A DNA stretch of 64,000 nt, from positions 23,713 through 87,712 of the forward strand of contig DASRYH010000008.1 of the NCBI GenBank assembly GCA_035687245.1, read 5' to 3'. This DNA comes from Coriobacteriia bacterium. GTDB lineage: Bacteria > Actinomycetota > Coriobacteriia > Anaerosomatales > PHET01. Shown here one piece after another: positions 60,150 through 64,000 of the stretch. A program made the translations under genes and the position numbers. The first letter of the stretch is position 1. Every line of letters starts with the position of its first letter. The notes beneath the pieces are model-generated. The model saw nothing but the letters and a program-made list of their open reading frames with translations, had not been told where the DNA came from and ran no database searches.

Positions 60150-61433
60150 TCAGAGCTCGCCGTCCACGCGCTCGGCCAACTCCGCCACGAGCCTTGGATC
60201 GTCGCTCCACGCTGGGAGCGTCACCACCGTAACTGATGAGTCGATGCGCGCTTGATGCACCGCCAACTCGGTGTCGAGCCGCGTTGTGATGGTGTCGAGC
60301 GGGAACGTGCCAGGCACCACGACGATTCGCCTGCAGCCAAGCGCTGCCAGATGCCGCACGGTGTTGATCAGGTCCGGCGCGCGCCACTCTGCCCATGCGA
60401 TGTGTACGTTGTCTTCGGCGACTCCGGCGTCCGTGAGCTGCATCCTAACGCGGCTCAGCAGCGCGTTCTCCTGGATGTCGAAGTCGGGATGCAGCCTGGC
60501 TAGCGTCTCAGGCTGGCCTTGGCCGAGCAGGATGACACCGGTACCAGCCGCATCCTCGGTCACGCGCAAGATACGCTGAACGAGCATGCTCACGATGCGT
60601 TCCGAGGCGCCGATCGGCGAAGTGAAGGCGACTCTCACGCCATGGTCTTGCAACCTCAGTGCGTCAGTCTGGCGCTTGGCGTCGGCGAGATCGCGCGAAT
60701 CGCCCACGGCTAGTTCGGCCGCGACGATCGTCTTGAAGCCCGCGAGCGCGAGCGACTGCACGCGCGAAGCCAGTGACGACTCACCCTCACACGTCGCGTA
60801 CTCGATGCGTTCGACTCCCTTGAGGCTGTGAGAGAGGCGGTCGGCGACGGTACGCAGCTCTGCATGCGCGGGACTGCGACCTCCCAAGGCTCGGTAACGC
60901 GCCTTCTGCGCGAAGAAGAGGAAGGGGAGGGTCGCCAGCGAGACGCTCACGAGGTCGTCATCGGTGAGGTCGGAAAGTGCGCGCGCGGTGTCGATGGGGT
61001 CGTATTCGGCACGCTCGATGTCGGCGAAGAGCACGACAGCGACGCCTTCACGCTCCGCCTCGATGGTCTGAGGCGCGAGGGTGACGGACTCAGCCCGCTC
61101 GCCCGCGCGTTCTAGCACGGAAGCGGCAAGCGCCCAGCCGCCAGCTGCCGCCGCGAGCATGAACGCGACCGCATAGACCGCCACGTCCACCCGCTCGTAG
61201 GTTCTCGCGAGGGAAGCGAGGGTGTAGATCGAGAACGCGAAGGAGGCGACGCCCACGATAGCCGCCAAGATCTCGAGCTGTCTCTTGACCACCAGGATCG
61301 CTACGCACGATGCACCAGTGACAAATGCTCCGGCGACGAGCAGGACCCACGACCACGGAATCTCAATCACCCCCTCAGATGTTCGTGATGATACTCGCAT
61401 GGGACTCGCGTTGTTGACAGAGACATACCCCAT
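60150..61433 (-). CDS. Membrane-anchored ferrochelatase-fold protein lacking canonical catalytic His/Glu
   Basis: About three N-terminal TM helices. KARYRALGGRSPAHAELRTVADRL matches the ferrochelatase RY..IGG.SPL block. ILLGQGQPE stands in place of SAHSLPE, and GTFPLDTITTRLD in place of GFVADHLEVLYD. ATG 61400 is an alternative start. Confidence 0.5.
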   Translation of the reverse strand: MGYVSVNNASPMRVSSRTSEGVIEIPWSWVLLVAGAFVTGASCVAILVVKRQLEILAAIVGVASFAFSIYTLASLARTYERVDVAVYAVAFMLAAAAGGWALAASVLERAGERAESVTLAPQTIEAEREGVAVVLFADIERAEYDPIDTARALSDLTDDDLVSVSLATLPFLFFAQKARYRALGGRSPAHAELRTVADRLSHSLKGVERIEYATCEGESSLASRVQSLALAGFKTIVAAELAVGDSRDLADAKRQTDALRLQDHGVRVAFTSPIGASERIVSMLVQRILRVTEDAAGTGVILLGQGQPETLARLHPDFDIQENALLSRVRMQLTDAGVAEDNVHIAWAEWRAPDLINTVRHLAALGCRRIVVVPGTFPLDTITTRLDTELAVHQARIDSSVTVVTLPAWSDDPRLVAELAERVDGEL

Positions 61434-61443
61434 GGGGTATACA
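61414..61443 (+). promoter_or_regulatory. Near-consensus promoter for trxA: TTGACA-N18-TATACA
   Basis: TTGACA at 61414-61419 and TATACA at 61438-61443, about 35 nt upstream of the trxA ATG. Confidence 0.55.
61425..61440. promoter_or_regulatory. CsoR-type operator, perfect 16-bp palindrome ATACCCCATGGGGTAT
   Basis: It lies in the spacer/-10 region of the trxA promoter and overlaps the ATG of the divergent ferrochelatase-like gene. Arms are near-identical to the box at 62286-62302. Confidence 0.55.
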
Positions 61444-61478
61444 AACCATTGTAATCGTGACTAGGAAAGGGACGGCAC

Positions 61479-61796
61479 ATGAGCAATGCAATCGATGTGA
61501 CCGCAGCGTCCTGGGCGACCGAAGTCGCCCAGTCCGACGTACCGGTTGTCGTGGACTTCTGGGCGCCGTGGTGTGGCCCCTGCCGAATGGTCGGTCCTGA
61601 GATCGACAAGCTCGCCGAACGCTTCGGCTCGGCGGTCAAGTTCGTCAAGGTGAACATCGACGAGAACCAGCAACTCGCAGTGAAGTACGGCGTCATGAGC
61701 ATCCCGACGATCGGGAAGTTCGTCGGCGGCGAGCTGGCAGCCTCCGTTGTCGGCGCTCGGGGCGCTGACGCGCTCGCTCGCGATCTCGCGCTCTAG
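61479..61796 (+). CDS. trxA: Thioredoxin
   Basis: VDFWAPWCGPCRMV active site; 105 aa. Confidence 0.9.
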   Translation: MSNAIDVTAASWATEVAQSDVPVVVDFWAPWCGPCRMVGPEIDKLAERFGSAVKFVKVNIDENQQLAVKYGVMSIPTIGKFVGGELAASVVGARGADALARDLAL

Positions 61797-61876
61797 CCAA
61801 CGCGTGTCGTGCTGGCGCGCGCGAAGGCGCAGTTGCGGGCGTGTGACCAGCACATTCGGCATCACTGAGAATCAGA

Positions 61877-61901
61877 GAGGGGCTCCCAATGGGAGCCCCT
61901 C
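61877..61901. terminator. Bidirectional hairpin terminator between trxA and csoR
   Basis: GAGGGGCTCCC, loop AAT, GGGAGCCCCTC: a perfect 11-bp stem between convergent genes. Confidence 0.7.
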
Positions 61902-61939
61902 GTCAGTGCAGTTGTCGCGCACACACACGGTCTATAGCG

Positions 61940-62242
61940 CTACTTCACGCAGGAGCTGTACTTCAAGAAGACCTTGATGGCTTCGTCGATGACTTCATCG
62001 CGGTCCATCGTGTCGTCGGTGATAAGGCAGTTCTTCATCGCGTGGCCGATGACGTGCAAACCGACCTGGTTCAGCGCCGACTTCGCCGCCATAACCTGCG
62101 TCAGAACCGCCTCGCACTCCTGGCCATTGTCGATCATGGTCTGCAGGCCACGAATCTGGCCCTCGAGACGCCGAAGCCTGTTGATGAGCTTCTTGCGCTC
62201 GTCATCGCTGTCGACGAATACAGGGGTCGTGTTCTCAGTCAT
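61940..62242 (-). CDS. csoR: CsoR/RcnR-family metal-sensing repressor
   Basis: LINRLRRLEGQIRGLQTMI, ECEAVLTQV, GHAMKNC. Cys43, His67 and Cys72 are candidate ligands. 100 aa. Confidence 0.85.
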   Translation of the reverse strand: MTENTTPVFVDSDDERKKLINRLRRLEGQIRGLQTMIDNGQECEAVLTQVMAAKSALNQVGLHVIGHAMKNCLITDDTMDRDEVIDEAIKVFLKYSSCVK

Positions 62243-62285
62243 GAGTCATCCATCAATCTGATAGGGTAGATGCGTCACGCGCAGT

Positions 62286-62302
62286 ATACCCCCTAGGGGT
62301 AT
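62286..62302. promoter_or_regulatory. CsoR-type operator ATACCCC-cta-GGGGTAT in the csoR/CDF divergent region
   Basis: 7-3-7 dyad that overlaps a TATTAT -10-like hexamer (62300-62305), 24 nt upstream of the CDF ATG. Confidence 0.6.
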
Positions 62303-62325
62303 TATCGACAACGGAGGGAGGGGAG

Positions 62326-63270
62326 ATGGGATACACGCGGCCGCAGGACGGCGAGGCGTCTGCCAATCGTGTCCACGAGATCCGCAAGATCCTGTGGGTC
62401 ATCCTCTTTCTCAACCTCGGGGTTGCGTTAGCCAAGCTAGTGTGGGGCCTCGTCACGAACTCTGCGGCCATGCAGGCCGACGGTTTTCACTCCCTGTTCG
62501 ACGGTACCAGCAACGTGGTCGGACTGGTGGGTATGGCGTTTGCCGGCCGTCCGGCCGATCGAGAGCACCCATACGGACACGCGAAGTACGAGACCTACGC
62601 TTCGGCGATTATCGCGGTGATGCTCGGTCTGGCGGCGTACCGCATCGGTTCGACCGCGGTCGGACACCTCGTGAACGGCGCGGAGCCCGCGCGAGTCGAT
62701 GCCATCTCATTCGTGGTCATGGTCGGCACGCTCGCGGTCAATCTCTTCATCACGACCTGGGAGCGCAGGGTAGGTCGCAGGCTCGGCAGCGAGATCCTCG
62801 TGGCCGATGCAAGCCACACCGGCTCCGACGTTCTGGTGAGTATCGGAGTCATCATCTCGCTCGTCCTCGTGAAGATGGGCTTCCAGCAGGCGGACCCGAT
62901 CGTCGCGCTCTTCGTGGCAGGGGCGATCGTCTACACCGCGTGGGGCGTCTTCAAGGCAGCCAATGCGACGCTTTTCGATGCTGCCCGGATCCCTGCCGAT
63001 GAGGTATGCGCGTTCGTCTGCGAGCAGGCCGGCGTATTGGGCGCGCACCACGTGCGCACTCGCGGGCCGGAAGGCGCTGTCTACGTTGACCTGCACATCC
63101 AAGTCGACGCCACGAGAACCGTCGCCGACGGGCATAACATCGCCGAAGCGGTGGAGCGCGCGATTCTCGAGCACTACCCGCACGTCGTCGATGCGATCGT
63201 CCATCTTGAGCCCTTCGATGACTACCAGGCCGACAAGACCGCCCGCGAGGTGGACGCCGGACTTGTCTGA
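62326..63270 (+). CDS. Cation diffusion facilitator (CDF) metal efflux transporter
   Basis: Six TM helices with HSLFDGTSN and DASHTGSDVLVS ligand motifs. C-terminal cytoplasmic domain (HHVRTRGPEGAVYVDLHIQVD). Confidence 0.85.
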   Translation: MGYTRPQDGEASANRVHEIRKILWVILFLNLGVALAKLVWGLVTNSAAMQADGFHSLFDGTSNVVGLVGMAFAGRPADREHPYGHAKYETYASAIIAVMLGLAAYRIGSTAVGHLVNGAEPARVDAISFVVMVGTLAVNLFITTWERRVGRRLGSEILVADASHTGSDVLVSIGVIISLVLVKMGFQQADPIVALFVAGAIVYTAWGVFKAANATLFDAARIPADEVCAFVCEQAGVLGAHHVRTRGPEGAVYVDLHIQVDATRTVADGHNIAEAVERAILEHYPHVVDAIVHLEPFDDYQADKTAREVDAGLV

Positions 63271-64000
63271 CGCACCCGAACGTCTCAAAGGCTACGCGCT
63301 CGCGCTGCTGGCAGCTGTCTGCTGGGGAACGGGCGGGCTGACGGCCAAGTGGCTTTTCACCGCGCCTTCGGCAGCCACCGCCAACTGGCCGCTGCACCCG
63401 CTCGGGCTGGCGATCGAGCCGGCAGCGCTGTCGTCGGGTCGCGCACTTGCCGCGTTCCTGATCCTCATCACCTACTTGGCGCTGCGCCGGCCCGCCGACC
63501 TGAAGATCAACCCGCGCCACTGGTGGTTCTTCGTCGTATTCGGCGTGGTAGGTATGGCCGGAGTGCACTTCACGTACTTCAAGGCGATATCGCTCACCAA
63601 CGTCGCCACGGCCATCCTGCTCGAGTACCTTGCACCGATTCTCGTGCTGATCGTCAGCGTCGCCTTCCTCAAGCACAAGCTCACCTGGCAGCTCCCTGCA
63701 GGTGTGGCATTGTCGGTGATTGGCTGTGCGCTCGTAGTTGGGGCGATCGGGGGAGAGGGGATGGCGGTCTCTCCCGCGGGCGTCGCGTGGGGTTTGGGCT
63801 CCGCGGTCTTCTTTGCCGCCTACTCACTGCTGGGCACGTGGGCGGCCTCACGGTATAGCCCGTTCACGACCCTCGTATACGGTCTGGGTGCGGCATCGGC
63901 GTTTTGGCTGGTCACCCTTGGGTTCGGCCCGATCGTCTACATCGTGGGGAACCCGCGCCTGTTTGCCGCCGTCATCTTCATGGCGATCTTCAGCACCGTG
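63263..64000 (+). CDS. EamA/DMT-family transporter, 3' end outside window
   Basis: Open frame from TTG 63263 to the window end, so it is absent from the ORF track. LKGYALALLAAVCWGTGGL..., multiple TM helices, EYLAPILV motif. Confidence 0.6.
   Translation, partial: MSDAPERLKGYALALLAAVCWGTGGLTAKWLFTAPSAATANWPLHPLGLAIEPAALSSGRALAAFLILITYLALRRPADLKINPRHWWFFVVFGVVGMAGVHFTYFKAISLTNVATAILLEYLAPILVLIVSVAFLKHKLTWQLPAGVALSVIGCALVVGAIGGEGMAVSPAGVAWGLGSAVFFAAYSLLGTWAASRYSPFTTLVYGLGAASAFWLVTLGFGPIVYIVGNPRLFAAVIFMAIFSTV

Follow-up and report, generated by a model that had tools for sequence, protein, structure and literature searches.

A predicted autoregulated CsoR-family regulon of trxA, ccdA and a CDF exporter in a Coriobacteriia bacterium

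Characterised members of the CsoR family respond to Cu(I), Ni/Co, formaldehyde or persulfides, several large clusters are uncharacterised, and reviews list no Zn/Cd-specific or peroxide-specific member (PMC8643695, PMC11672702). All Cu(I)-sensing clusters conserve a His at ligand position Y and a Tyr before the Cys at position X, and in CstR loss of the Y His uncouples Cu(I) from DNA release; x-C-x-C proteins form the persulfide-sensing clusters, whose neighbourhoods encode sulfur detoxification (PMC8643695). CsoR binds the copZA1/2 operators of Streptomyces lividans as two tetramers and requires their TAC/GTA ends, and the DNA-binding role of an RLRR motif has been described in CsoR (PMC3902906). 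The ScCsoR site of S. coelicolor is ATACC-N6-GGTAT, and sulfane sulfur is sensed through Cys37 and Cys66 (PMC7533328). DmeR-DmeF is a known pairing of a CsoR-family regulator with a cation diffusion facilitator (CDF). Here a CsoR-like gene and the operator-like dyads around it were analysed in a 64,000-nucleotide stretch of a Coriobacteriia bacterium (contig DASRYH010000008.1, positions 23,713 to 87,712), referred to as the window.

The locus is likely to encode an autoregulated CsoR-family repressor that would occlude at least three promoters, with a thiophilic metal as the favoured effector. The well-supported part of this reading is that an autoregulated repressor would block the promoters of three, probably four, transcription units. 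Sequence, positions, conservation and fold are observed, and from them are predicted the binding of this protein to these sites, the direction of regulation, the control of the CDF gene and the effector. The repressor, the two dyads in the window and the promoters that contain them are as follows.

61940 to 62242, minus strand: CsoR-family repressor of 100 amino acids (PF02583, 88.1 bits, E = 5.3e-25, cutoff 22.8)
61425 to 61440: predicted operator 1 (trxA operator), ATACCCCATGGGGTAT, a perfect 16-bp palindrome with core TAC-N8-GTA, at the same promoter position in relatives
62286 to 62302: predicted operator 2 (csoR/CDF operator), ATACCCCCTAGGGGTAT, which is ATACCCC-CTA-GGGGTAT with core TAC-N9-GTA, supported by relatives and by the S. 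lividans core match
61414 to 61443, plus strand: trxA promoter, with -35 TTGACA at 61414-61419, an 18-nt spacer containing the dyad and -10 TATACA at 61438-61443
61479 to 61796, plus strand: trxA, 105 amino acids with WCGPC (PF00085, 101 bits; NCBIfam TIGR01068, 109 bits, above cutoff)
62283 to 62311, minus strand: csoR-like promoter, with -35 TTGTCG at 62311-62306, an N17 spacer containing the dyad and -10 TATACT at 62288-62283

The window was compared with a related set of 29 Coriobacteriia loci (325 kb), made up of 25 orthologous loci taken from species-representative genomes (L003-L027), three 20-kb loci (L037, L039 and L041) and L001, which reaches 7.6 kb beyond the window end. An identical CsoR-like protein was present on metagenome assemblies, and homologues carried Coriobacteriia metagenome-assembled genome (MAG) protein annotation. 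Promoter architecture was read from ortholog alignments anchored on the dyad and from an independent promoter scan of the window. The conserved gene order placed the CcdA/DsbD_TM, HMA, small open reading frame (ORF), sigma54 activator, histidine kinase, rpoN, EamA and CDF genes in one orientation, diverging from the csoR-like gene; trxA converges on the csoR-like gene and diverges from a chelatase-like gene, which is followed by a convergent PHP-domain gene.

Exact matches to ATACCCC-N1-5-GGGGTAT numbered 2 in the window against 0.00 expected from 100 dinucleotide shuffles, and relaxed dyad searches of the window gave no further credible site. Within the related set TACCC-N4-5-GGGTA was observed 48 times against 0.62 expected. 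All 48 copies fell at one of three conserved promoter positions, with no off-target copies in the 325 kb, and were assigned to three classes.

Class A dyad: 15 bp, TAC-N9-GTA, upstream of the csoR-like gene, in 28 of 29 loci, one degenerate
Class B dyad: 14-bp core (15 bp in L020), upstream of trxA, in 18 of 18 trxA loci and 0 of 11 loci without trxA
Class C dyad: 14-15 bp core, 37-66 nt upstream of the CcdA gene, in 4 of 4 long loci and in metagenome locus L150

The classes share the architecture TTGnnn, 4-6 nt, TACCCC-N2/3-GGGGTA, in which the closing TA of the dyad supplies the first two bases of a TAnnnT -10. Generic repeats and RNA elements were considered as explanations for the dyads and were rejected on the copy number in the window, the absence of off-target copies in relatives and the absence of any Rfam family matching the dyads; the original prediction had named a widespread repeat as the finding that would speak against it. 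The core of operator 2, TACCCCCTAGGGGTA, is identical to the S. lividans copZA operator core, and operator 1 fits the ScCsoR site, in agreement with the proposal that both are CsoR-type operators. As such cores are common to Cu(I)-sensing CsoR and sulfane-sulfur-sensing ScCsoR sites, the operator type does not discriminate between effectors. More distant relatives in Clostridia are CsoRs of the canonical YC...H...C form and have dyads of the same type.

Dyad 1 occupies the spacer and -10 region of the trxA promoter, its final TA being the first two bases of the -10. At a fixed distance TTGAC was kept in 15 of 18 orthologues, the -10 being TATAAT, TATACT or TATAAA. The original prediction had located both dyads, the promoter hexamers and the CDF ATG correctly, and its placing of the palindrome in the TTGACA-N18-TATACA promoter of trxA holds at every trxA locus. 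It had passed over the promoter of the csoR-like gene itself. This promoter, TTGTCG-N17-TATACT, was reported independently by the promoter scan, and TTG-N3, 4 nt, dyad and TAnnnT were kept across orthologues. As operator 2 lies inside it, the csoR-like gene is probably autoregulated, and operator 2, which sits in the 83-bp gap between the csoR-like and CDF genes, probably serves primarily for autoregulation of the repressor gene. In an intermediate subgroup (L013 and L022) the csoR-proximal dyad was degenerate and missing, respectively, and the trxA dyad was intact in both. In one Coriobacteriia MAG (L030 5001-5492) trxA and the chelatase-like gene were preceded by a tandem pair of csoR-like ORFs, which may instead be a fused or duplicated gene.

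A PDB sequence search with the repressor gave ten CsoR-family matches. The AlphaFold2 monomer model (predicted local distance difference test score 76), from which helix boundaries only were taken, comprised three helices at residues 12-39, 43-73 and 81-96, the second being continuous; the top 22 PDB matches to this model in Foldseek were all of the CsoR family (CstR, FrmR, CsoR and InrS). The RLRR motif was found at residues 22-25. HMMER alignments, ungapped through helix 2, placed Cys43 at X, Ala68 at Y and Cys72 at Z. The canonical His of InrS, Geobacillus thermodenitrificans CsoR and S. lividans CsoR aligns with Ala68, and the canonical Cys with Cys72. The suspicion that the His-Cys spacing was one residue off was therefore well founded, as was the view that the protein departs from the copper-type fingerprint and might answer to any of several effectors. 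PDB entry 7mq3 was considered as a natural parallel for Ala at Y and was dropped, being an engineered N55A mutant.

Conservation was scored over 121 orthologues of the CsoR-like protein. Cys43, Gly66, Met69, Cys72 and Cys98 were invariant, His63 was present in 118 and His67 in 116 (four had Tyr), and position 68 was Ala or Ser in all 121. The residue before Cys43, Glu42 in the window, was E, D or Q and never Tyr. Asp11, which aligns with InrS His21, was not conserved and there is no N-terminal His. With Ala or Ser at Y, Glu in place of Tyr and no N-terminal His, the protein does not qualify as a canonical sensor of Cu(I) or Ni/Co; the FrmR fingerprint (Pro2 and His at Y) is also absent, the N-terminus being MTEN... 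and Y being Ala. By its ligand fingerprint the repressor belongs with the x-C-x-C (CstR/ScCsoR-like) class.

His67, which had been included in the proposed ligand set, lies one residue before Y on the helix predicted to be continuous, and is a poor candidate ligand since the position varies between H, Y and R in the wider clade. Two residues not considered at the outset, Cys98 and His63, follow the exporter instead. Cys98 is placed directly after helix 3 in the model. A sister subgroup of 10 loci kept Cys43 and Cys72 and lacked Cys98, with M, L, R or H at position 63 and H, Y or R at position 67. An adjacent CDF gene was present in 15 of 16 loci with Cys98 and in 0 of 10 loci of the sister subgroup, and Cys98 together with invariant His63 was found only in the CDF-linked subgroup. 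The intermediate subgroup (L013 and L022; IIRHAMHEC...KYVNCVR) kept His63, His67 and Cys98 and had a more divergent CDF (52-55% identity).

The third dyad, also missing from the original prediction, lies outside the window.

L001 2280 to 2293, about 69314 to 69327 in window numbering, 5.3 kb past the window end: third dyad, ATATACCCCATAGGGTATAT in locus orientation, TACCCTATGGGGTA toward ccdA

It recurred at L037 2972, L039 2215, L041 2899 and L150 360, in a TTGnnn...TATATT promoter 40 nt upstream of a 241-residue CcdA/DsbD_TM gene whose product has both conserved Cys. The predicted regulon would thereby extend beyond the window to a membrane thiol-reductase gene, ccdA.

Divergent from the csoR-like gene are two transporter genes and a candidate promoter element for them.

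62326 to 63270, plus strand: CDF metal exporter, 314 amino acids (PF01545, 143 bits; ZT_dimer, 67 bits)
63218 to 64000, plus strand: EamA/DMT-family exporter gene, overlapping the CDF stop and cut by the window end (PF00892 on L001, L037, L039 and L041)
62259 to 62267, plus strand: candidate extended -10 TGaTAGGGT for CDF-EamA, with TGnTAnnnT or TAnnnT kept in orthologous csoR leaders

The CDF protein has HxxxD in transmembrane helix 2 (HSLFD) and in transmembrane helix 5 (HTGSD), both invariant in 14 orthologues, and is on these motifs presumably of the Zn/Co/Cd type. Its best NCBIfam match was the Zn-type efflux model Cdf31 (221 bits, below cutoff), on which a literature search gave nothing relevant; against the DmeF model it scored 41 bits only (cutoff 250). 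Operator 2 and the CDF ATG at 62326 are separated by 23 nt, with a Shine-Dalgarno sequence at 62313-62323, so that the CDF promoter must overlap operator 2 or fire through it. On this geometry the CDF gene is included in the predicted regulon, and EamA is probably co-transcribed with it. The TATTAT hexamer (62300-62305) noted originally upstream of the CDF start was rejected as the CDF -10, as orthologues differ at this position (TATTTG in L003, TATACC in L004 and TATCAG in L006). The element at 62259-62267 may, tentatively, drive CDF-EamA instead, in which case operator 2 would span about +12 to +28 of the transcript. In CDF-less relatives the gene divergent from csoR was EamA (L017) or rpoN (L021 and L010).

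A metagenome scan for TACCCCNNGGGGTATA returned 120 loci. Among the genes downstream were those for sulfide:quinone oxidoreductase (SQR)-like, metallo-beta-lactamase/persulfide dioxygenase (MBL/PDO)-like, rhodanese, CoADR-like, TauE, peroxiredoxin, AhpD-like, CopA and thioredoxin proteins. At least 10 loci combined a dyad-preceded thioredoxin gene with an x-C-x-C CsoR-like gene (GRDC...ASGMRQC...EKLFLSLA) that had its own dyad, and the helix-2 motif of these proteins resembles that of the repressor described here. From these pairings thioredoxin appears to be a recurrent cargo of actinobacterial CstR-like regulators; no mention of such pairing was met in the CsoR-family literature examined. 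Pairs of this kind with TAC-N8-GTA dyads were seen in high-GC Actinobacteria metagenome loci L068, L129, L097, L151, L103, L072, L128 and others. No P-type ATPase/copA gene was found within 20 kb. The cargo of the regulon is less unusual than had been described: DmeR/DmeF is a precedent for the CDF, and thioredoxin recurs beside x-C-x-C CsoR-like genes.

By analogy with characterised CsoR and CstR proteins, the repressor would bind TAC-N8/9-GTA dyads with C4/G4 tracts as tetramers. Since every dyad overlaps both the spacer and the -10 of a promoter of sigma70 type, the protein once bound would block access of RNA polymerase. At operator 2 it would shut off its own gene from a site that is also within or just downstream of the divergent CDF-EamA promoter, at operator 1 it would shut off the trxA promoter, and at the third operator the promoter of the CcdA/DsbD_TM gene. 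Derepression would be triggered when the Cys43/Cys72' pair between subunits is chemically occupied; no other candidate sensing residues are kept across the whole clade. The induced TrxA and CcdA would repair thiol damage.

A thiophilic divalent metal is a credible effector, though it falls short of being the probable one. Such a cation is favoured in the subgroup of the window because Cys98 and His63 are invariant there and co-occur with the CDF; the substrate of the exporter (Zn/Cd/Co type) would be captured by Cys43, Cys72' and Cys98. Several points weigh against the reading as a whole or against its metal effector. The nearest sequence pattern, I-x-x-[AS]-M-[KR]-x-C, belongs to x-C-x-C CstR-like proteins of Actinobacteria, for which thioredoxin is a recurrent cargo, some members have Tyr or Arg in place of His67, and the link of Cys98/His63 with the CDF amounts to essentially two clades and few independent events. 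Placement of the CDF promoter is of low confidence, TATTAT being unconserved and the extended -10 tentative. A paralogue elsewhere in the genome could bind the sites, since canonical CsoR proteins recognise the same core, and the host is an uncultured Coriobacteriia MAG. A thiol-reactive effector acting on the same regulon, that is persulfide/polysulfide, peroxide, disulfide or electrophile stress or another oxidant, is a serious possibility that likewise stops short of probable. Such a species would act on Cys43 and Cys72' by modification or cross-linking, as happens in CstR and ScCsoR, with TrxA and CcdA as a reductive repair arm, EamA and, where present, the CDF as secondary cargo and Cys98 as an extra resolving or reactive thiol. 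The x-C-(A/S)-C fingerprint has its Cys residues 29 apart, as are Cys37 and Cys66 of ScCsoR, the Tyr/His 'cage' of Cu(I) sensors is missing, and Cys43 and Cys72 alone are universal in both subgroups. The helix-2 resemblance to actinobacterial x-C-x-C proteins, the thioredoxin pairings in at least 10 metagenomic loci, the SQR-like, MBL/PDO-like, rhodanese, CoADR-like, TauE, peroxiredoxin and AhpD-like genes behind other TAC-N8-GTA sites, the fit of operator 1 to the site of a sulfane-sulfur sensor, and trxA and ccdA as cargo point the same way. However, sulfide/sulfite detoxification genes are the defining trait of CstR clusters, and no rhodanese, PDO, SQR, coenzyme A (CoA)-persulfide reductase or TauE gene was among the called genes within about 20 kb (L001, L037, L039 and L041). 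In addition, the gene that shares the operator encodes a Zn/Co/Cd-type CDF, with which invariant Cys98 and His63 appear together.

Cu(I) is an unlikely effector, the least likely of the three that can be named. It would be held in a non-canonical site of Cys43, Cys72' and either His67 or Cys98, with TrxA and CcdA countering copper-catalysed thiol damage in the envelope in an Scs-like manner. The identity of operator cores with the S. lividans copZA operators, the near invariance of His67 in the subgroup of the window and the presence of a CopZ-like HMA gene (GMHCGSC) next to the third operator, joined in L039 by a cupredoxin gene, would fit such a sensor. The HMA gene, however, lies behind a conserved sigma54 promoter and not behind a dyad, and copA is missing within 20 kb. 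Both residues kept in all Cu(I)-sensing clusters are replaced, Y His by Ala/Ser and the preceding Tyr by Glu, and in CstR Cu(I) no longer drives release once the Y His is lost. On the helix predicted to be continuous His67 is displaced by one residue, and some members have Tyr or Arg there. CDFs are not known to export copper, which also counts against this effector. An effector other than these three is improbable. That the dyads are not sites for the repressor at all, but generic repeats, RNA elements or the operators of another regulator, is very unlikely. Their core is common to many CsoR-family operators, but both copies in the 64 kb lie in promoters, none of those in relatives is off target, and in 28 of 29 loci one dyad is in the regulator's own promoter. 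The dyads have no Rfam match, a loop of 2 nt is too short for a hairpin on a 7-bp stem, and the window holds no second PF02583 gene.

On the other side of trxA, operator 1 lies close to the chelatase-like gene, which had been counted as a member of the mini-regulon.

60150 to 61370, minus strand: membrane-anchored chelatase-fold protein, 406 amino acids from the probable start GTG 61370 (Ferrochelatase PF00762, 37.5 bits; CbiX, 32 bits; both weak)
61388 to 61393, minus strand (61393-61388): -10 of the chelatase-like gene, TATCAT, from the promoter scan, with (GAG)TATCAT kept in orthologues

The longest ORF extends to ATG 61433 and starts inside the palindrome because the palindrome contains CATG, and the reported overlap of palindrome and start codon is true of this ORF. 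The start is more probably GTG 61370: orthologues have (GAG)TATCAT, then a Shine-Dalgarno sequence, then a start codon that lies 7 residues ahead of a conserved Trp, and GTG 61370 gives 406 residues against 403-409 in orthologues. The palindrome ATG was rejected as a start on the ortholog starts, the Shine-Dalgarno positions and the L004 frame, which closes after 4 codons. The distance from the dyad to the chelatase-like -10 varied from 31 to 73 nt and that to the trxA promoter was fixed, from which dyad 1 is assigned to trxA. A role of the dyad as an activator site of the chelatase-like promoter was rejected for the same spread, which leaves no fixed geometry. Operator 1 thus does not support membership of the chelatase-like gene in the regulon, which stands for trxA and, on geometry, for the CDF gene; its tie to the regulator appears to be one of synteny. 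In relatives without trxA it follows csoR within 10-50 nt (L011, L012 and L017), probably as a csoR-chelatase operon. As the gene always adjoins the csoR-like and PHP-domain genes, its function may relate to the signal of the regulator. A PDB sequence search with the protein found no close relative and only sub-threshold CbiX fragments. The protein is anchored in the membrane at its N-terminus, and the catalytic His positions of CbiX were not evident in it, being apparently substituted.

One further element was read from the sequence between the convergent trxA and csoR genes.

61877 to 61901, between convergent trxA and csoR: GC-rich hairpin, perfect inverted repeat GAGGGGCTCCCA / TGGGAGCCCCTC

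This hairpin is probably a bidirectional terminator without a T-run, and for lack of a T-run it was missed by the scan of the window. Its sole Rfam match, BjrC68 at 20.6 bits, falls short of the gathering threshold of 39. In some relatives a DUF302 gene and a zinc-ribbon gene are inserted between csoR and trxA (L039/L040 10305-10889), and some insert a cupredoxin gene between the HMA and CcdA genes (L039/L040). A near-perfect sigma54 promoter, TGGCAC-N5-TTGCA, was found at L001 about 3009 (minus strand), L037 3567, L039 3591 and L041 3581. It is conserved upstream of a small membrane/zinc-ribbon-like ORF and the CopZ-like HMA gene, and this region is downstream of the rpoN, PAS kinase and sigma54 activator cluster that follows CDF-EamA. 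As rpoN is the gene divergent from csoR in L010 and L021, a cascade from the CsoR-like regulator to sigma54 is possible. If true, the regulator would in such relatives stand atop a sigma54/two-component cascade driving the CopZ-like gene.

The clade offers a natural experiment, in which a dithiol-only, CDF-less subgroup can be set against a sister that gained Cys98, His63 and the CDF; both keep the same operators and the trxA target, which makes the evolution of inducer specificity in the CsoR fold testable. For environmental Coriobacteriia, which are poorly known, it also defines a predicted regulon comprising trxA, ccdA and CDF-EamA. The CDF-linked subgroup could represent the first CsoR-family sensor of a thiophilic divalent metal (Zn or Cd), through a C-terminal Cys recruited into an ancestral persulfide-type dithiol site, or the clade the first CsoR-family sensor of oxidant or disulfide stress, driving an envelope-reducing pathway from TrxA to CcdA; that one of these holds is rated as rather doubtful. 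A C-terminal Cys is recruited into a thiolate metal site in CmtR, of the ArsR family. This serves as an analogy only, the fold being different: Cys98, invariant in the exporter-linked subgroup and in a flexible C-terminal tail, could complete an S3 site.

CsoR-type operators, autoregulation and a CDF partner, as in DmeR-DmeF, are already known. What is new is the combination, in one Coriobacteriia clade, of a persulfide-type fingerprint, a displaced His, a subgroup-specific C-terminal Cys and a trxA/ccdA/CDF-EamA regulon. The DmeR-DmeF and RcnR-RcnA (Ni/Co) systems are alike in that a CsoR-family repressor adjoins, and presumably controls, a metal exporter, here of the CDF type. They differ in the H-C-H-H fingerprint, which is absent here (no N-terminal His, Ala at Y), and the CDF falls far below the DmeF model and matches a Zn-type model best. 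The Cu(I)-sensing CsoR proteins of S. lividans, Bacillus subtilis and Mycobacterium tuberculosis (CsoR/RicR) share the operator type, the RLxR motif, autoregulation and promoter-overlapping operators, with the TACCCCCTAGGGGTA core of operator 2 equal to the S. lividans copZA1/2 cores; here, however, the Y His is Ala, the Tyr before the X Cys is Glu, and no copZA operon lies under a dyad. Closest are the x-C-x-C proteins ScCsoR and CstR, of sequence similarity network clusters 3, 4 and 10 (Fakhoury et al. 2021). The PF02583 fold, two Cys 29 residues apart, the lack of a His at Y and a similar helix-2 motif are shared, as are the actinobacterial setting, autoregulation (here predicted) and several promoters each with an ATACC-N6-GGTAT-type dyad. 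The repressor described here differs from them in its extra His63, His67 and C-terminal Cys98, in the acidic residues that flank Cys43, and in a predicted regulon of trxA, ccdA and CDF-EamA in place of PDO, rhodanese, SQR, CoA-persulfide reductase and TauE.

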